Shown here: positions 510 through 31,043 of the stretch, piece by piece
Layout: the number at the start of each line of letters is the position of its first letter
Position numbering within the stretch: position 1 is the first letter of the stretch
Assembly: GCF_002214165.1 (NCBI RefSeq)
Contig: NZ_CP019964.1
Coordinates: 780,001-812,000 of the forward strand
From: Candidatus Saccharimonadota bacterium
GTDB lineage: Archaea; Micrarchaeota; Micrarchaeia; Micrarchaeales; Micrarchaeaceae
DNA length: 32,000 bases
Direction: 5' to 3'
Translations under genes and position numbers: made by a program
Notes under the pieces: model-generated
Databases searched by the model: none
Seen by the model: only the letters and a program-made list of their open reading frames with translations
Told to the model about the DNA's origin: nothing

Positions 510-613
510 CGGGCCCGACGGGATTTTCATGTTTGCTTTTTAGGACAAACAATTTGAACCCGTGACCATCAGCTTAGAAGGCTGCCGCTCTATCCAAGCT
601 GAGCTACGGGCCC
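510..613 (-). tRNA. tRNA-Arg(UCU) with a 29-nt non-canonical intron in the T-loop
   Basis: The minus strand reads GGGCCCG-TA-GCTC-AGCTTGGATA-GAGC-G-GCAGC-CTTCTAA-GCTGA-TGGTC-ACGGG-TTCAAAT-[insert, plus coords 523..551]-CCCGT-CGGGCCC-G. The 7-bp acceptor stem and the D and T stems pair perfectly, and the anticodon loop is CU-UCU-AA. The anticodon stem has one G27:A43 mismatch. 75 nt remain after the insert is removed. The insert is flanked by a bulge-helix-bulge motif (see findings). Confidence 0.85.
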
Positions 614-18801: not shown

Positions 18802-19517
18802 CTATATAATTTTAGTCCACTTCTCTATAACGCTTCTTACTTCATCAAATTCCGGCAAGGGCACGAAAAGCAAGTTTTTGAGCTCTTTTTCAAATATACC
18901 CCTTTTATTAAGCAAGGATATTTCAAATTTATCTGGCAAAAACCTATCTCCGATATATTCTAACTTTTTATTCACTAAATTTATATCAAACTTTATATTT
19001 TTTTCCTTTATTAGATAATATAAGTCAATACATCACGTGCTTTATTCCTGCTTGTTATTGCCCTTATCTTTTCTGCACCCACTTCATCTAAATTTATTCC
19101 GTTAAGTACATGTATTGGCAATAGGTATTCAGGAAAATTTAATTTTATAGGCAGGGTTTTGTTTATTAGTTCTTCTCTTTTACTTATTTCTACATATACT
19201 ACACATCTGCTATTTTGGCTTGTATATAGAGGCCCCTGGGCCATTACCTTGAATGAAAATGATTTCTTATCATTAGTTTCAATTTTTGACTCGTTATAGA
19301 TTCCAAAAAGATCTAATCTTTCTGAAACTTTATTCATTATATTGCTTGGAAGATCGGATATCGCGGTAAAATCTAAATCTTCAGAAAAACGGGGCAGCCC
19401 ATTGAAAAACCATAGATAAGTGTCTCCCTTAAAAACTATAGATTCATCATAAAGTGAATTCAATATAGATGCTTGTATATAACGTTTCTCTTCTTGCCAT
19501 GCCTTTAAGCCTCTCAA
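18802..19517 (-). pseudogene. AbiEii/DUF1814-type nucleotidyltransferase toxin, frameshifted
   Basis: The N-terminal ORF (19011..19517) carries FKGDTYLWFFNGLPRFSEDLDFT, the GGTAL..RFSEDLDF-type signature. It stops at ...NKARDVLTYII*. A different frame continues as IDLYYLIKEKNIKFDINLVNKKLEYIGDRF...EKWTKII* down to 18802 and restores the family ARD..DLYYL motif. This implies a 1-nt indel near 19028-19031. Confidence 0.7.
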
Positions 19518-19531
19518 TTTAGCTATCTCAA

Positions 19532-20124
19532 TTAGTGCGTTTTTTTCAATGATGCAATTACCTTATTTATATTTTTACTCCCATAGCCTTTGTAGTTATT
19601 TGCAAGCTCAGTTAACCTCTTTTTATTTAAACTGCCAAGATACTCCTTCAGCTGATCTATCGAATACATACCTAAATATATACCATCGATTATGGCTTTT
19701 TCTGGTTCTGCAACGAATGCATAACTCTGCCCTCTCTCTACTCGTTTATACCCATAAAATAATGAAGGAGGTATCTTATGGTAATTTATCCCAAGCTCCT
19801 CCAATCTAATTGAGTTTACAGTGGTTACACACTCTATATCCCTTGGGACTTGCTGTATTATATCATGAAAAAGTAAGGCAGATTCGATTGATATATAAGA
19901 GGGATTTATTAGCTGGGAGGCTATAGCAAAATTGTCATCCACTAATGAATATTTTCCACGCATAATCCTCTTTGCAAGATTTTTTTAACCATCCGTGCTG
20001 CATAGGCATTCCCAAATTTTTTGGATTTGCCTAATATATTTGCTATTTCTGAGGGTGTTATGACTGCACTTCCTGTTTTCAATGCAAAGTTTTTTATTGA
20101 ATAGAGGTTATTTTCTTTTGCCAT
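19532..20124 (-). pseudogene. AbiEi-type antitoxin/transcriptional regulator, frameshifted in a homopolymer
   Basis: The 60-aa ORF (19942..20124, ...AARMVKKILQRGLCVENIH*) and the 143-aa ORF (19532..19963) join into one AbiEi-like sequence, ...ARMVKKNLAKRIMRGKYSLVDD...PSYISIESALLFHDII..., if the A7 run (plus T7 at 19980..19986) were A8. Confidence 0.65.
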
Positions 20125-23629: not shown

Positions 23630-23654
23630 AATAAATTTAAGAGTACATCCTAAA

Positions 23655-24105
23655 TTCCGCTTCGACTCAAATTCACCCCGACTTCGCTCCGCTCAGCCAC
23701 CCCTCTTTGAGCCTCCGCTATTTACTATGTGCCCTCCGCTCGCCTGCACGCCGAGCACAGGACCCCATGCTTCGCCTCCAATCAAAATTCACCCCGTCTT
23801 GCTTACGCAATCCACCCCTCTTTTGATTTACGGCTCGCACTCTTTCTCCGAAAGAGCCCCTCCTTTGCTACGCTCATCTGGGGTGGTGTCCTGTGCTCGC
23901 CGCTCGTGGTGTATGTGTGGTGCTACACACCATCGCTTCGCTTGGTGTTCCACACCACCCACCGCTGACGCTTACACCACTCGGTCCTGCTTCGCAGGAC
24001 TTCCGGCTCGCTTCGGGCACATTATTCTCTCCTGCGGAGTGCAATATAGGGGAGGGGGCTTAAGGGGATGCTTGACCGCACAATGTCGCTTCGCTTAGTG
24101 CGGAT
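23655..24105. ncRNA. GC-rich, hairpin-dense non-coding island; candidate novel structured RNA or ssDNA-active site (strand unresolved)
   Basis: GC content jumps sharply against AT-rich flanks. Five perfect hairpins, a 12-bp long-range inverted repeat and two paralogous stem-loops with compensatory closing pairs are present. The heptamer GCTTCGC occurs four times. Only implausible overlapping ORFs lie here. Details are in the findings. Confidence 0.45.
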
Positions 24106-24167
24106 AAATTGCTTATTTATCGATCATAAATTCTAAATATAAAAATCAAATATATGAAGGATGCTCA

Positions 24168-24548: not shown

Positions 24549-24678
24549 TATAATATCATATCAAAATGATTAAAAACATTTTCTATTTTAGTATTCACTT
24601 AAAACATTAATCAAATCCCGACCGGTCCATTTAAACTATTAATCGAATACTTCTTATGCCATTACTCGTTATGCTATC

Positions 24679-25949
24679 ATGACCATTCAGCCCAAGTATC
24701 AGGATCTTCTTCTTGATGAGGATGTGCGGAGATGGTTTGAAAATTTAAGGGCAAAGTCAGTTTTGACTGCAACGGTGGCATTGAGAAACCTCGGTCATTA
24801 TTGCGAAATGACAGGAACAACGCCCAAGCAGATTCTCGAAAAGGCAAGGAAAAACGAGAAGGATTTCCGCTATGAATTTTCTGATTTTGTAAGGGAAATG
24901 GAGAGTAAAGGAAAAGCGGGCTCATACATTGCAAGGTTCAAGAAGGTTATTCTGTCATGGCTGAAGTTTAACGGTATCCGTTTACAGTTAGCCGTTAACA
25001 TATCCGGAGAGAACGAAACGCCGACGATAGCAAATGAGAGAGTGCCCAGCAAGGAAGAGCTTGCAAGAATATTGAGAAAAGCGACATCGCGAGGAAGGGT
25101 TATCATAGCATTAATGGCATTTTCAGGGCTAAGACCGGAATCGCTTGGAGATTACGAGGGCACTGATGGATTGCGATTGGGAGATTTAAAGGAGTTAAAA
25201 CTATCAGACGAGATACAGTTCGACAAGATCCCTGTTACTGTAATGGTGAAGAGCAAGCTTAGCAAGGCAAGGCATCAGTATTTCTCATTCATAGGTGAGG
25301 AGGGAGCAACATACATAAAGGAATACCTCGAAGAGAGGAGGAAACAGGGAGAGGAACTGACCTATGATTCGCCGCTGTTGCAGTTCGATGTCCGAGGAAT
25401 AAAGAAGAATGCATTCCTAAGGACAACGCTCGTTACAAGGGATGTCAGAGATGCAATATACGGGGCAGCGTATTAAGGGCGTATTTCTCAATGGCACTTG
25501 ACATAGCAGAGAGCAAGGGCTTAATATCGCATCCTTGGAGGCAGTTCATAATGGGGCACAAGGGCGATATCGAAGCCAGATACAGCACGAACAAGAGACT
25601 GCCTCCGGACATGATCGAGGAGATGCGCGAATCGTACAAGAAATGCTTAAAGTACCTCGAAACAAGGATAACAGAGCCATCGGAGATCGATGCAAAAATA
25701 TACCTACAACAGCAACTGCTTCTCGCAGTGGGCTACAAACAGGATGAAATCGATATGATGAACCTTGCTGAGATGGACAACGATGCATTCCAGAAACTTC
25801 TTCGCGACAAGGTTGCTGGCGCAATGTCAGGCAACGGCTCAAAGCAGAGGCTCGTGCCTGTAGATGAAATAGAAAAATTCCTCAGTCAAGGCTACGAGTT
25901 TCAGGCAGTTTTGCCCAACGGAAAGGCTATAATGAAAATGCCGTTTTAA
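24679..25949 (+). pseudogene. Tyrosine recombinase/integrase (archaeal integrase family), split by a frameshift
   Basis: ORF 24679..25476 has a SAM-like N-domain and box I (AFSGLRPESLGD). ORF 25491..25949 has box II (HPWRQFIMGHKGDIEARY). The conserved VLRAYFSMALDIAE segment is readable in frame 3 from 25461 (RGSVLRAYF...), while frame 1 ends ...RDAIYGAAY*. This implies a 1-nt indel around 25455-25465, next to a G4 run. Confidence 0.85.
25912..25942 (+). repeat. Direct repeat copy 1 (31 nt, inside the last codons of the integrase)
   Basis: TGCCCAACGGAAAGGCTATAATGAAAATGCC is identical to 27736..27766. Confidence 0.95.
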
Positions 25950-25971
25950 TTGTTAAAATATCATAGTAAAG

Positions 25972-25986
25972 TATATATATATATAA
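25972..25986 (+). promoter_or_regulatory. TATA-rich box upstream of cassette 1
   Basis: TATATATATATATAA is centred about 24 nt upstream of ATG 26003. This suggests a leaderless or short-leader mRNA and matches the geometry at cassette 2. Confidence 0.35.
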
Positions 25987-26002: not shown

Positions 26003-26878
26003 ATGGGTAGCCGTAAAAATGAATTAATAATGAGCGGAGCTGTGATAGTAAGCAAAGATGGAAACGTTTTGAAAACAAAGATTAATAACTACAAAACACC
26101 GATAAAAGTGTCACCAAAGATTCCAACCCCCAACGTTATCGCCAACAGTGGCTTGAAAAATATGTCTCTGATTTTCTCAGATAAGACACAGGGTTACCAC
26201 ATGGCATTCCGGGAAATGAATTATGACATCACAGAAAAGCAGGTAGTTCAGTCAGGAAAAGCATATTCATTATATTTTGAGATAACAGATGATGAAGACA
26301 CGACATATTTGGAAGGAAATATAATCCCTCTCGAAAGCAATAAAGGCGTTTTATTTTTATCGGTTAATGTTTCTCCCAAGAATCCAGAAAATGTTGACCT
26401 TTTTTCCCTTCCCATAGTCATTCGTTATAAAGGAAGCTTTCTGTCCATAATAAAAGACTTGAGTTCCATCATAAGTAATTTGAAAAAAGATGCGTCGACG
26501 AAACGAAACAGAATTTATGGAAAAATGGTGTCTCTTCTTGAAGCTTTTCCTGACATATATGCAAATAATCGAAATCGATTAGATATCATAAATAATCTAG
26601 AACTATCGTTCAAAGTTACCCTTATGGATTTTAATTTTACATGTTGTCTCGAAAATGCATTAAGTTTGACCGATTGTGTGCTTAGTGTTCCAGATATTGA
26701 AGAAATATGTGCTGAATGTTTGGTTTTACCCGATTGCTTGGCAGCTTGCTTTGACTTCCTAACACTCCCTGCATGTCTTGTCTGTTTTAGTCTTGATGTT
26801 CTTGCTTGCGCCTATTGTGTATATAAAGCAGGAGAATGCACTGAAGATGCAATAAAAGTGATTGACTGCTGCAAGTAA
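26003..26878 (+). CDS. Cassette 1 lead protein: Cys-free 213-aa N-domain plus a 78-aa hydrophobic C-terminal region with 14 Cys (candidate archaeocin precursor)
   Basis: The 291-aa product has no Cys in residues 1-213. Its Cys residues fall at 214, 215, 225, 236, 239, 245, 249, 258, 261, 269, 272, 279, 289 and 290 (nt 26642..26875). No N-terminal signal peptide is evident. Confidence 0.7.
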   Translation: MGSRKNELIMSGAVIVSKDGNVLKTKINNYKTPIKVSPKIPTPNVIANSGLKNMSLIFSDKTQGYHMAFREMNYDITEKQVVQSGKAYSLYFEITDDEDTTYLEGNIIPLESNKGVLFLSVNVSPKNPENVDLFSLPIVIRYKGSFLSIIKDLSSIISNLKKDASTKRNRIYGKMVSLLEAFPDIYANNRNRLDIINNLELSFKVTLMDFNFTCCLENALSLTDCVLSVPDIEEICAECLVLPDCLAACFDFLTLPACLVCFSLDVLACAYCVYKAGECTEDAIKVIDCCK

Positions 26879-26887
26879 AGTGACTTT

Positions 26888-27292
26888 ATGATTATAACCA
26901 GCAAGAGAAAGTTTTATGAATCCATACTTTCATATAGCATAGCTTGGATTTTCTTATATCTGTCAGTATTCCTATCACAGCACATAAAATATGATGGAAA
27001 CTTTACATCCGCAATACCTATATTATTTCCTCTGGTATTTGCCATGGTAGCCATAGGGGTCTCCATTTTGTTTATTCTTGGAAAGGAATATCCGTGGTTC
27101 TTTAGAACTGGAATTATGAGTCTTGCTATCGGAGTAACCCTATTCATTTTCGGGATAATAACGTATTATTCTGGTGTTGAATCTCTACTCTGGGGAGGGT
27201 CAGTAGGAATAGGCGTTTTGTTTGTAATTGCAGCAATTGTTAGATTAACTATACAAGGTGGCTTAAGTGCATACAGAAAAGCAAAGAATTAG
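26888..27292 (+). CDS. Small polytopic membrane protein (about 4 TM), cassette 1
   Basis: The 134-aa hydrophobic ORF starts 9 nt after the lead gene's stop. Confidence 0.6.
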   Translation: MIITSKRKFYESILSYSIAWIFLYLSVFLSQHIKYDGNFTSAIPILFPLVFAMVAIGVSILFILGKEYPWFFRTGIMSLAIGVTLFIFGIITYYSGVESLLWGGSVGIGVLFVIAAIVRLTIQGGLSAYRKAKN

Positions 27293-27494
27293 AGCAGTAT
27301 TTCTTTTGAGCTTTGGAACTGTATTTCTTATTTCAGGTATTGCGGGTCTATTATCGTTATCCATTTCCTATAACATTAAATCTTTTGGAACAGTAATTGC
27401 ATCGTTATCTGTTATTGCTGGAGCGTATTTTCTCCTCAATGCGTATTTTGTTTGGAACAACACAGCGACTAGAGGATTGGGAGAAGACACATGA
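27267..27494 (+). CDS. Small membrane protein (2 TM), cassette 1
   Basis: The 75-aa ORF has a GTG start that overlaps the previous ORF by 26 nt. Confidence 0.5.
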   Translation: MHTEKQRIRAVFLLSFGTVFLISGIAGLLSLSISYNIKSFGTVIASLSVIAGAYFLLNAYFVWNNTATRGLGEDT

Positions 27495-27700
27495 ATCCGT
27501 ACAGATATCACATCATCCTTGTGACCATTGTATCTTTTGTTGTTCTGATAATCAATATTATGGCTTATTTAGCAAAGGACGAGACCAATTATCTCTATCT
27601 TTTTGACATGGCTTATGTAGTTGGAAATAGTGCTCATTTTATAGCCTTATCCATCTCCTCAAATGGCATAAATATTGAAGATGAAAAGAAGGTAAAATAG
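27491..27700 (+). CDS. Small membrane protein (2 TM), cassette 1
   Basis: The 69-aa ORF shares an ATGA start/stop overlap with the previous ORF, indicating translational coupling. Confidence 0.5.
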   Translation: MNPYRYHIILVTIVSFVVLIINIMAYLAKDETNYLYLFDMAYVVGNSAHFIALSISSNGINIEDEKKVK

Positions 27701-27734: not shown

Positions 27735-27773
27735 CTGCCCAACGGAAAGGCTATAATGAAAATGCCTTTTTAG
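27735..27773 (+). pseudogene. Orphan integrase C-terminal remnant (13 codons, LPNGKAIMKMPF*) containing direct repeat copy 2 (27736..27766)
   Basis: CTG CCC AAC GGA AAG GCT ATA ATG AAA ATG CCT TTT TAG encodes the same peptide as 25911..25949. It differs only at synonymous positions (TTG/CTG, CCG/CCT) and in the stop codon (TAA/TAG). Confidence 0.85.
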
Positions 27774-27930: not shown

Positions 27931-28572
27931 ATGACCTGCAGTAATTGTTTTGATGCAAATGGTAGAAAAATAACAAGAATAAGTGTGCCACATAAGGAGG
28001 AATATACAGAGGGGAAACTAAAAATAACGGAAGGTGTGACAATTGTTCATTACAAAGAGGGCCCAGGGACGATCCTAAATTGGAAACAAATAATTGAGGG
28101 CAATACCTCCTCCATTGCAGACATAACTTATATTATACAATATAATGGTAAAAATATTACAAACAAGTTTAAAACCAAATACATTGACACAATAAATGGC
28201 AAGAAACTTGTTCACGTTGACGGAACTGGATTGGGCTCTAATGGGAAAGTAAACGTAACTAACAAGGATATTGCTCTTTCAAATGTAAAATCAGATCCAA
28301 ACGCCATTGAATGTCTTATTTGTCATGCTCTTGGAACCGTGCTTTGTACACTTCTTGCAGAGGGTGTATCAGAGGACTTAGCTTGTGAAGAGGCATCTGG
28401 CATCGTATGCTTAGAATTCATAGAGGATCCTATTGTTTATGTCGTTTGTTTTGGGGTTGTCGCATCAATTTGCGATGTTGTTCTACAAACAGTAATAGAT
28501 ATTGGTGTTCATGTTGCATGCGACCTTGGTGCAGACTACATATGCGAGAAGGCGATTGGATGTTCTTTATGA
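27931..28572 (+). CDS. Cassette 2 lead protein: beta-rich N-domain plus an 86-aa hydrophobic C-terminal region with 10 Cys (candidate halocin-C8-like precursor)
   Basis: The 213-aa product has the C-terminal spacing C128-x2-C-x7-C-x12-C-x7-C-x12-C-x7-C-x15-C-x7-C-x5-C211 (nt 28312..28569). A CxxC sits at residues 3-6. No signal peptide is evident. Confidence 0.7.
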   Translation: MTCSNCFDANGRKITRISVPHKEEYTEGKLKITEGVTIVHYKEGPGTILNWKQIIEGNTSSIADITYIIQYNGKNITNKFKTKYIDTINGKKLVHVDGTGLGSNGKVNVTNKDIALSNVKSDPNAIECLICHALGTVLCTLLAEGVSEDLACEEASGIVCLEFIEDPIVYVVCFGVVASICDVVLQTVIDIGVHVACDLGADYICEKAIGCSL

Positions 28573-28617
28573 AGGCTTAAATAAATATTCCTTCCTATAA
28601 TTTCAGGTGATAGGTAA

Positions 28618-29145
28618 ATGAGATATAGATTAATCTATTTAAGCATTGGCATTGCAATAATGGTCATTGACATATTACTTGCTCTCAAGTATCCAAAAAT
28701 ATTGATCTATAGCCTATGGGGTTCCTTCCTAGGTTTCTTCATTCCTTTTGGTATAGGATTTTCGACCCTACTCTACGGAGCATTTAAGGCCAAGGATTAT
28801 GGGATAAATCCGGTAATTGGAACAATAGGCTCAGGAGGCTTCACCAGAGTGATTAGGCAGAACAGGATTCAGGGCACAAGAACTTGGAAGACTGACCATG
28901 ATATACTTTCTGAACTTCCTGGGGCCCTAAAATCCCCTGACGGGAAAACAGTTGAATACAGCAGTTTGTTCATAAGAAAGCCCTATGGATCAACAAAATA
29001 CACGAAAAGACTAAACGAAGCGGCCAATAAGTATATTGCAGGGGAAATAGATGAGGAAGGATTTTATAACTATGTCGGAAAGCGTGGACCCAAGGAGGAA
29101 CAGATGCTTGAATTTATCAAAAAATTCAAGAATGATTATAGGTGA
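28618..29145 (+). CDS. Membrane protein (2 N-terminal TM plus a ~100-aa soluble domain), cassette 2
   Basis: The 175-aa ORF has normal composition, and I recognise no family. Confidence 0.6.
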   Translation: MRYRLIYLSIGIAIMVIDILLALKYPKILIYSLWGSFLGFFIPFGIGFSTLLYGAFKAKDYGINPVIGTIGSGGFTRVIRQNRIQGTRTWKTDHDILSELPGALKSPDGKTVEYSSLFIRKPYGSTKYTKRLNEAANKYIAGEIDEEGFYNYVGKRGPKEEQMLEFIKKFKNDYR

Positions 29146-29157
29146 GGTGATGACAAA

Positions 29158-29418
29158 ATGGTTAAATTTCATCCTATAAACAAAACAATGACTGTTGGAA
29201 CCTTTATGTTCATAGGTTCCATGATAATAATCGCACTGGGAGCTTTGTTTCATTACCTGCACTACTCTGCTTCAATTTACCTTTCATTCTTCTTTTATGG
29301 TCTAGGAATATTCTTCCTTTCAGCGATAATATTGTTCATCGGAACTCTGCTGGCAGCAAAAAGTGGCAAGTTGCAGAAAAGGGCAAGCGACATTTTCAAC
29401 AATAGAAAATCGAAATAA
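29158..29418 (+). CDS. Small membrane protein (2-3 TM), cassette 2
   Basis: The 86-aa hydrophobic ORF starts 12 nt after the previous stop. Confidence 0.55.
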   Translation: MVKFHPINKTMTVGTFMFIGSMIIIALGALFHYLHYSASIYLSFFFYGLGIFFLSAIILFIGTLLAAKSGKLQKRASDIFNNRKSK

Positions 29419-30638: not shown

Positions 30639-31043
30639 ATGGACGAAGATACATTAATCCTGACATTTTTGGTATCAGCCCCTGCTTTTTTCATAACGAG
30701 TTTGCTATGGCCCGGACTATTTCAGCATCTCATATCCATGGCGACCTCAGGCAACATTTTTTACGAGATTATTGGCATTGCAGGCATCGCTTATGCAGTC
30801 ATCGGTGCTGTCATAATCATAATATTCGCATTCACACTGCTGATTTACATACTAGTATTCGGAGTTATCTTTTTCTTCCCTGCTTACCTCATATACACAA
30901 TGCTTGGCTTAGAATATTCACTGATCCTAGTTGCAGTTCTATGCACCATCGCAATACTCTATTTCTTGGAGACACACACGGTCAGCGTGGAGCACTATAC
31001 GATTGTTGTAAACCCGCACAGGCGATACATAATTAAAAGGTAG
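30639..31043 (+). CDS. Polytopic membrane protein of the element
   Basis: The 134-aa ORF has 3-4 TM segments. It starts 3 nt after the previous stop and lies directly upstream of the ATPase. Confidence 0.55.
   Translation: MDEDTLILTFLVSAPAFFITSLLWPGLFQHLISMATSGNIFYEIIGIAGIAYAVIGAVIIIIFAFTLLIYILVFGVIFFFPAYLIYTMLGLEYSLILVAVLCTIAILYFLETHTVSVEHYTIVVNPHRRYIIKR

Follow-up and report, generated by a model that had tools for sequence, protein, structure and literature searches.

A cysteine-rich module protein and three small membrane proteins form a candidate archaeocin-like toxin/immunity cassette on an integrated archaeal element

We analyzed a stretch of 32,000 nucleotides (nt) of the archaeal contig NZ_CP019964.1 (positions 780,001 to 812,000 of the forward strand, hereafter the window), which carries on an integrated element a compact unit of four + strand open reading frames (ORFs) at 26003-27700, designated here cassette 1. 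According to the ORF list of the window, its lead gene is followed, after a gap of 9 nt, by three genes for small hydrophobic proteins that overlap one another by 26 nt and then by an ATGA (Table 1); the ORF sizes and spacings given in a preliminary description of this DNA, made from its letters alone, were all reproduced. The four-gene order was kept in every related locus with enough sequence (related loci and contigs bear L numbers below), and the GTG start of the third gene was also kept in L015 and L016. This conserved order, together with a C-terminal module of the lead protein that is 88-99% identical between lineages at saturated synonymous sites (detailed below), indicates that the genes of cassette 1 are real and selected.

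Upstream of the lead gene we found a TATA-like box with the run TATATATATATATAA, located where the preliminary description had placed one, about 24 nt before the ATG, and also kept 5' of the lead gene in the related loci L008, L009 and L013. This run is the putative promoter of cassette 1, the transcript of which is likely leaderless. An in-frame stop at 25967, 12 codons 5' of the lead ATG, rules out a longer N-terminus and hence a hidden signal peptide.

The lead protein contains no cysteine in residues 1-213 and 14 in residues 214-291, exactly the partition first described, and the chance of 14 randomly placed cysteines all falling in the last 78 of 291 residues is about 1e-8. The cysteines are arranged as CC-x9-C-x10-CxxC-x5-C-x3-C-x8-CxxC-x7-CxxC-x6-C-x9-CC (spacings 0,9,10,2,5,3,8,2,7,2,6,9,0). 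The last 78 residues are hydrophobic yet acidic, with 13 Asp/Glu (D/E) versus 3 Lys/Arg (K/R), and the 86-amino-acid (aa) module counted from residue 206 contains 14 D/E and a longest uncharged run of 13 aa. At its other end, the protein begins with MGSRKNELIMSGAVIVSKDG, which is not hydrophobic and does not qualify as a twin-arginine translocation (Tat) or general secretory (Sec) signal. The motif at the junction of the two parts is a candidate processing point, as judged from family alignments.

Table 1. Coordinates of cassette 1, of the domains of its lead protein and of neighboring features in the window (TM, transmembrane segments)
Feature	Position	Strand	Description
TATA-like box	25972-25986	+	run with centre ~24 nt 5' of lead ATG; read from sequence
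Lead ORF	26003-26878	+	291 aa
Lead N-domain, aa 1-205	26003-26617	+	strands 9-144 and long helices 146-197; Cys-free; no signal peptide
Junction motif TLMDFNF, aa 206-212	26618-26638	+	from family alignments; D-F-[ND] core kept family-wide
Cys-rich C-module, aa 214-291	26642-26875	+	14 Cys, 13 D/E; predicted compact 4-5-helix bundle
Second ORF	26888-27292	+	134 aa; ~4 TM by hydropathy; Cys-free; cassette-1-specific
Third ORF	27267-27494	+	75 aa; GTG start; 2 TM by hydropathy; Cys-free; cassette-1-specific
Fourth ORF	27491-27700	+	69 aa; 1-2 TM by hydropathy; Cys-free
Element left end and tyrosine-recombinase gene	24611-25949	+	identity with second chromosomal context (L037-L039) starts at 24611
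Direct repeat copy 1	25912-25948	+	37 nt; last 12 codons and stop of integrase gene; att-like cassette boundary
Direct repeat copy 2	27736-27772	+	36/37 identical to copy 1; right boundary of cassette 1
Cassette 2 lead	27931-28572	+	213 aa; HalC8-like domain aa 128-211 (28312-28563); no signal peptide
Cassette 2 membrane proteins	28618-29145; 29158-29418	+	175 aa and 86 aa; from ORF list; both intact where the toxin domain is deleted (L015, L024)

AlphaFold2 modeled the full-length lead (predicted local distance difference test, pLDDT, 70; predicted template modeling score, pTM, 0.70) with a β-sheet at residues 9-144, helices at 146-197, a strand at 200-208 and a helical C-module. The C-module alone, modeled with a deeper alignment (pLDDT 81, pTM 0.69), yielded a compact bundle of four to five helices, and a helical-face analysis placed its cysteines mainly on single helical faces. 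Foldseek gave no match for the full-length model at E<=0.001 in PDB or BFVD, and for the module-only model its top matches were all Cys-lined four-helix copper storage proteins, namely the Ccsp of S. lividans and the Csp3 proteins of B. subtilis and Methylosinus, none of them significant (E>=1.1, probability <=0.69, template modeling score 0.42-0.52). These matches, together with the cysteine-bearing helical faces, point to a possible metal-handling cassette, in which the bundle would bind Cu(I) or other thiophilic metals as Csp1 and Csp3 do with the membrane proteins as its transporters or sensors, and the cassette would be adaptive in copper-rich acid mine drainage. Cytosolic Csp3 likewise has no signal peptide, the samples come from metal-rich mines, and the genomic island of the symbiont strain Mia14 (see below) carries a copper P-type ATPase. 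However, the fold matches are non-significant and four-helix bundles are generic, and the module had no Csp/DUF326 match in Pfam at E<=10 and no match to a PDB chain by sequence, a PDB search with the family profile returning designed helical proteins only (E>0.09). Moreover, Pyrobaculum relatives of the lead have nearly no polar surface residues, unlike a soluble Csp, the neighboring cassettes of the same build are related to halocin C8, and the module swapping and toxin-domain loss described below would not be expected of metal storage. We consider metal handling the least likely of the readings weighed here; were it true, copper-mine archaea would carry, on a mobile island, a Cys-lined metal store of a new type.

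Halocin C8 (HalC8) is a hydrophobic peptide of ~76 aa with 10 Cys, cut from the C-terminus of a ~280-aa precursor (ProC8) whose N-terminal part is the immunity protein. The preliminary description had assigned cassette 1 to this family, and the architecture of the lead does parallel that of ProC8, with an N-domain followed by a ~80-aa Cys-rich module at the extreme C-terminus. Homology, however, could not be detected at any level. Neither the whole lead nor its last 92 aa matched Pfam or NCBIfam, with its profile TIGR04449 (halocin_C8_dom), even at E<=10, and when the N and C parts of the family (a 16-sequence alignment) were compared by hhalign with three HalC8-like profiles (Thermoplasmatales-only and Thermoplasmatales plus haloarchaeal), probabilities were 0.2-0.5%. 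BLASTP of the lead against that of the adjacent cassette 2 found nothing, the HalI-type immunity domain PF22862 was not matched in Pfam searches of the lead at E<=1, nor of its N-domain alone at E<=10, and the ten-Cys HalC8 framework (CxxC-x7-C ... GY.IC ... G.C) is not that of a module with 14 Cys and CC...CC ends. With no profile, profile-profile, framework or N-domain support, we rejected membership of the lead in the halocin C8 family. Nor did the lead match any entry of Pfam, NCBIfam, PHROG, PADLOC or PDB.

The same TIGR04449 profile did match the lead of cassette 2 (23.9 bits against a cut-off of 24, E=6e-5, over the full profile; 20.7-23.9 bits across searches) and the leads of a third cassette type in sister elements (type 3; 41-49 bits, E down to 8e-13). 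The cassette 2 lead, with Cys spacings of 2,7,12,7,12,7,15,7,5, and the type-3 leads align end to end with each other, and their C-domain aligns with an annotated halocin-C8-like domain-containing protein of Halorubrum trapanicum. Antimicrobial activity is the only tested function of the halocin C8 domain (Sun et al. 2005, as summarized in a preprint), and HalC8 homologues outside the haloarchaea are already known in general (same preprint). The presence of genuine HalC8-like genes in the same array, in an equivalent slot and with the same architecture, is the main basis on which we read cassette 1 as a functional analogue of HalC8. Thus, of the halocin-C8-like precursor/immunity locus originally proposed, the architecture and the comparative patterns stand and the homology does not, and we infer, rather than observe, that the two would work alike.

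We next turn to the relatives of the lead. A word-indexed search of 5.8 billion proteins yielded seven clusters and an exhaustive HMMER profile search of 1.84 billion representatives only 17 proteins, and all members of the family are annotated 'hypothetical'. The full-length members comprise a Thermoplasmatales-type group (Acidiplasma aeolicum VT, I-plasma, Thermoplasmataceae and Thermoplasmatota metagenome-assembled genomes (MAGs), and Mia14), a group of 277-aa proteins of other Thermoplasmatota MAGs, and a group of Pyrobaculum proteins with a few unplaced metagenomic ones. In the alignments the Cys framework and the D-F-[ND] junction motif were kept throughout; the CAEC of the window protein is replaced by CP[LY]C in the distant members. 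The Pyrobaculum and metagenomic members carry N-terminal signal or transmembrane segments and many N-x-S/T sequons, indicating that they are extracytoplasmic, and one metagenomic member (P0024) has a signal peptide and a rhodanese (sulfurtransferase) domain before the family N-domain and Cys module. Members with a signal segment have 2-7 D/E in the module and 50-67 consecutive uncharged residues, whereas those without one have 8-16 D/E, and the HalC8-like domains display the same contrast (15 D/E here versus 2 in Halorubrum). No relatives were found in IMG/VR, INPHARED phages, PLSDB plasmids, PHROGs or PADLOC; a virus or plasmid origin of the lead was rejected on the first three of these.

The features of the exported relatives bear on an alternative in which the lead is not toxic but serves the mobile element in its envelope or in recognition, its Cys module being a membrane-embedded anchor or fusion-type segment. 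The lead and the small membrane proteins would then jointly bring about cell-cell contact, self/non-self recognition or DNA transfer, either among wall-less acidophiles or between a DPANN symbiont and its host. With their signal or transmembrane segments, N-glycosylation sequons and 50-67 uncharged C-terminal residues, the Pyrobaculum and metagenomic relatives resemble type-I glycoproteins, and the backbone of the element encodes a multi-transmembrane protein and a 695-aa AAA_10/AAA_22-type ATPase, as in transfer modules. An identical element is present in a DPANN archaeon and in a Thermoplasmatota MAG, and the polymorphism of the cassettes would fit specificity determinants too. The window lead, however, has no signal peptide and no uncharged run longer than 13 residues, so that it cannot be a classical transmembrane anchor at neutral pH. 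The sister cassettes carry a domain with antimicrobial activity as its only tested function, and the repeated loss of a Cys domain with the membrane genes kept would be hard to explain for an adhesin. Searches for viral or conjugative proteins, which the preliminary description had named as a competing case, gave no match. Altogether, we hold an envelope role to be unlikely.

The patterns of selection and rearrangement, taken together, resemble those of toxin/immunity cassettes. Between lineages with saturated synonymous sites (proportion of synonymous differences, pS, 0.6-0.9), the module is 88-99% identical (nonsynonymous substitution rate, dN, ~0.05), and the N-domain over the same lineages 47-77% (dN ~0.25), evolving 4-5 times faster. 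The Cys module is thus under strong purifying selection; recent gene conversion as the cause of its conservation was rejected because its synonymous sites are saturated. In cassette 2, precisely the HalC8-like domain was deleted twice (L015 3379-3789; L024 10565-10912), with differing left breakpoints, leaving the membrane genes and their upstream region intact. In the complete genome CP133596.1 (L040) it is the cassette 1 lead that is broken in two (106+177 aa), ahead of three intact membrane genes, although the break could be a sequencing error. Finally, the N-domains of the Pyrobaculum proteins P0029 and P0031 are ~70% identical as far as ...KKAPTVAxxTD and are followed by unrelated Cys-rich hydrophobic modules, so that the module is exchangeable there. 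The two part exactly at the position equivalent to aa 206-212, which is, on this comparison of sequences, the point of module swapping. Such a swap on a constant N-domain is a hallmark of polymorphic toxins; no swap was observed among the members of the Thermoplasmatales clade, whose modules hardly vary.

The downstream genes follow a pattern of their own. The 134-aa protein, which like the other cassette 1 proteins had no family match in Pfam, NCBIfam, PHROGs or PADLOC, is encoded directly after the cassette 1 lead in all related loci and is a candidate immunity or export component. The 69-aa protein has homologues, 62-65% identical, that stand last in cassette 2 of L007 and in the type-3 cassette of L029, and a copy of its type also follows cassette 2 in Cuniculiplasma divulgatum; since these homologues also close HalC8-like cassette types, we take it to be a generic 3' cassette component. 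More broadly, the gene directly after the lead encodes a small multi-transmembrane protein in five of six deep lineages; a small membrane-protein gene is found there in all Thermoplasmatales loci as well as in L006, L020, L021, L032 and L034.

The missing signal peptide and the tight translational coupling of the four genes would also suit an intracellular addiction or abortive-infection module, in which the lead is never exported, the bundle damages the membrane of the producer from inside unless the membrane proteins neutralize it, and the cassette stabilizes the island or kills infected cells. No Thermoplasmatales-type lead of any of the three cassette types has a signal peptide, the module is acidic and presumably soluble, and the island of the relatives also holds restriction-modification and toxin-antitoxin genes. 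Yet the distant relatives and the haloarchaeal HalC8 proteins are clearly exported, no PADLOC match was obtained, and the 14 conserved cysteines suggest an oxidizing, extracellular site of action; deletions of the toxin domain that leave 'antitoxins' behind fit both an intracellular and a secreted toxin. We judge an intracellular module to be highly unlikely.

To summarize, these data lead us to propose, with moderate confidence, that cassette 1 is a new archaeocin-like toxin/immunity unit, horizontally exchanged and analogous to halocin C8 but from an unrelated family. This reading rests on toxin-domain loss with the membrane genes kept, on the module swap, on the variability of the cassettes, on the small multi-transmembrane gene that follows the lead, and on a position and build that match those of bona fide HalC8-like cassettes in the same array; the purifying selection on the Cys module, the extracytoplasmic relatives, the charge contrast between modules of members with and without a signal segment, and the lack of viral or plasmid relatives count for it as well. 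The 291-aa lead would be a precursor whose β-rich N-domain carries, and probably shields, the C-terminal bundle. This bundle (8-9 kDa, four to five helices, up to seven disulfides) would be the active, membrane-directed part, and the 134-aa (4 TM) and 75-aa (2 TM) proteins would protect the producer, help the lead across the membrane, or both, with the 69-aa protein as the generic component. Rich in Asp/Glu and devoid of a signal peptide, the module should be soluble in the near-neutral cytoplasm and become uncharged and hydrophobic at the pH of ~1 outside. The cassette sits in a variable array just 3' of the integrase gene of the element, bounded by copies of the 3' end of that gene. Its anatomy and conservation, the variability of the cassettes, the HalC8-like neighbors, the toxin-domain losses with the membrane genes kept and the module swap were observed directly; that the lead is toxic, exported, cleaved, disulfide-bonded and switched by pH, and that its partners confer immunity, is what we infer.

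Several observations weigh against this proposal. None of the cassette 1 proteins is homologous to a known family of toxins, bacteriocins or immunity proteins in the libraries searched, and the cassette has no signal peptide, protease or ABC exporter, which leaves export unexplained. The near-invariance of the module among Thermoplasmatales lineages is atypical for a toxin/immunity arms race, and the evidence for orphan immunity genes comes mainly from cassette 2, cassette 1 contributing the one split lead of L040. No membrane gene follows the Pyrobaculum variant P0031, homology between the 134-aa protein and the proteins encoded downstream of the leads in Pyrobaculum, L032 and L034 was not detectable, the association being positional only, and the best fold matches of the module, non-significant as they are, are copper storage proteins.

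A bolder version of the toxin/immunity proposal, decidedly unlikely in this full form, would make the product of cassette 1 a leaderless, pH-switched archaeocin. Its 13-16 Asp/Glu would keep the bundle soluble, its three own membrane proteins would export it without Sec or Tat, and protonation at pH ~1 would turn it into a disulfide-locked membrane-active peptide, the same trick having arisen independently in the HalC8-like cassettes; shuffled in an integron-like manner via the integrase 3' end and shared by Ca. Mancarchaeum and Thermoplasmatales hosts, the cassettes could police their partnership. As a separate observation on cassette 2, a conserved Asp-Pro (SDPN / NDPS) lies just before the first Cys of the HalC8-like domain in its lead (aa 121-128, window 28290-28312) and in the type-3 leads of L014 and L029, and is missing from the homologue P0012. 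Asp-Pro is the most acid-labile peptide bond, so that, speculatively, non-enzymatic release of the HalC8-like domain at pH ~1 would be conceivable.

We then examined the array in which cassette 1 resides. The integrase gene preceding it is a pseudogene here, in two pieces (24679-25476 and 25491-25949; 265+152 aa) that result from a frameshift caused by a 19-nt deletion; it matched Phage_integrase/phrog_1 weakly, and its homologues in Acidiplasma and C. divulgatum are intact at 429 aa. An assembly error is an unlikely cause, the identical split being present in five independent assemblies. The last 37 nt of the integrase gene recur after cassette 1, a position after the 69-aa gene also seen in L007, L008 and L010, and every related element (L008, L009, L015, L017, L022-L029) has this 37-mer at the end of its integrase gene. 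Neither the repeat nor the frameshift had been noted in the preliminary description. Scanning metagenome contigs for this repeat brought up related collinear elements with the order integrase, array, 121-aa gene, multi-transmembrane gene and 695-aa ATPase, in which the array is made up of none to two cassettes drawn from three types: no cassette, cassette 2, cassette 2 and type 3, type 3, or cassette 1 and cassette 2. In C. divulgatum, cassette 1 is absent and the integrase gene is followed directly by cassette 2.

All three types encode a β-rich N-domain, a Cys-rich C-terminal module and small membrane proteins and are associated with the 37-nt repeat, the canonical order within a cassette being a promoter of its own, the lead gene, the membrane genes specific to its type (one or two), a gene of the 69-aa type and finally the repeat. 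In L007 the repeat follows cassette 1 and again cassette 2, in L029 it flanks the type-3 cassette on either side, and it was also found after the cassette in L008 and after a cassette remnant in Acidiplasma aeolicum (L015). Together with the window, these four loci display what is expected of an integron-type system, a recombination site by the integrase gene repeated at cassette boundaries. The length of the integrase 3'-end remnant varies, however, from 37 nt here to at least 51 nt in L007 and ~295 nt in C. divulgatum, and serial integration of whole elements into the integrase gene followed by deletion therefore explains the repeats equally well as cassette-level, integron-like recombination. 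The view of the locus as a discrete cassette on an integrated element of non-halophilic archaea was upheld, and the cassette concept is stronger than the preliminary description supposed, even as halocin C8 membership is unsupported.

In L007 and C. divulgatum, cassette 2 is closed by a 69-aa-type gene and a terminal repeat, both of which the copy in the window (27931-29418) has lost. Further along the element, the backbone continues with a 134-aa multi-transmembrane protein and then the 695-aa ATPase (window 30639-31043 and onward; L015 6265-8453), which may together serve DNA transfer. The window-type genome has a truncated ATPase of 465 aa, with methyltransferase and ResIII genes after it.

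With respect to the host, Mia14_0856 of the DPANN symbiont Ca. Mancarchaeum acidiphilum and MCL4345824.1 of a Thermoplasmatota MAG both match the lead at 100% identity. The window as a whole is 99.99% identical to contig L035, which has Mia14-type flanks, namely genes for prolyl-tRNA synthetase (ProRS), a HAD hydrolase and a radical-SAM protein. The largest genomic island of Mia14 spans 36.5 kb, lies within the pyruvate-formate-lyase-activase gene MIA14_0850 and is rich in small transmembrane 'dark matter' proteins (PMC5498576), a description that the window flanks fit. The same element, 99.8% identical from window position 24611 on, occurs in a different chromosomal context assigned to a Thermoplasmatota MAG. 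The element itself is of the Thermoplasmatales type, and the host is probably not a member of the Thermoplasmata, given the Mia14-type flanks and the identity of the lead with a protein of a DPANN archaeon. The 265+152-aa integrase split is common to both contexts (L035-L039), Mia14-type and Thermoplasmatota MAG, which raises the question of how an element whose integrase is broken came to lie in two genomes, perhaps from two phyla.

Outside the element, a GC-rich stretch at 23640-24110, between the radical-SAM gene fragment and the left end, contains a 372-nt ATG ORF (23727-24098, + strand) and folds far better than shuffled controls (z = -5.55), with no Rfam match. Upstream of the ProRS gene, a 168-aa ORF (19011-19517, - strand), which corresponds to a gene with a Pfam AbiEii match on contig L035, adjoins a 143-aa ORF (19532-19963, - strand), and the two may be a toxin-antitoxin pair outside the island. 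At 555-613 (- strand), Rfam reported a tRNA match of 32 bits, for which ARAGORN made no call.

The locus offers a new family of Cys-rich modules and a compact cassette format with candidate immunity genes, and its neighbors are the first clear halocin-C8-like genes that could be documented, as far as we searched, in Thermoplasmatales-type elements. The accessible literature on these organisms contains no mention of halocins or bacteriocins, and as far as it could be searched, no antimicrobial protein has been characterized from extremely acidophilic wall-less or DPANN archaea. Archaeal polymorphic toxin and bacteriocin-immunity cassettes were reportedly surveyed by Makarova et al. in mBio in 2019, and that survey may list the archaeal clusters of orthologous genes (arCOGs) concerned. 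C. divulgatum grown with Mia14, and Acidiplasma aeolicum VT, constitute a testable culture system. The locus also raises the questions of how a signal-less, disulfide-rich protein is exported and whether symbiont and host exchange toxin/immunity cassettes.

Set against known systems, cassette 1 is closest in build to ProC8 of Natrinema (TIGR04449, PF22862). Both have a ~280-290-aa precursor whose last ~80 residues are hydrophobic, Cys-rich, helical and probably disulfide-stapled, preceded by an N-terminal part of ~200 aa, and both lie on mobile DNA, with true HalC8-like genes occupying the equivalent slot of the neighboring cassette. They differ in having no detectable sequence or profile similarity, in the number and framework of cysteines (14 versus 10), and in the lack of a Tat/Sec signal and of a HalI-like N-domain in the cassette 1 lead. 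Downstream, cassette 1 has three small membrane-protein genes where ProC8 has ABC-transporter genes, and its module is acidic where that of ProC8 is uncharged.

With the copper storage proteins Csp1 and Csp3 (DUF326 four-helix bundles), the lead may share a helical bundle, predicted here, with many cysteines at seemingly inward-facing helical positions, and among these proteins, too, a cytosolic form without a signal peptide (Csp3) exists beside an exported one (Csp1). In contrast to them, the module has a β-rich domain of 205 aa fused to it and comes with three coupled membrane proteins, and the surfaces of its relatives are nearly apolar.

Polymorphic toxin and bacteriocin-immunity systems resemble cassette 1 in their constant N-part with an exchangeable C-module (P0029 versus P0031), a gene for a small membrane protein immediately 3', presence/absence polymorphism and a location on mobile islands; remnants that have lost the toxin but not the genes behind it are clear in the case of cassette 2. 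Unlike them, cassette 1 has no RHS/YD, LXG or other known delivery domain and no known toxin fold, and its module is highly conserved rather than diversified within the Thermoplasmatales. Lastly, the array differs from an integron in that the 3' coding end of the integrase gene serves as its repeat in place of a hairpin-forming attC, and in that each cassette has its own promoter and several genes; it resembles one in being a variable array of promoter-proximal cassettes directly 3' of a tyrosine-recombinase gene, bounded by a short site abutting that gene, with the newest-looking cassette nearest the integrase.

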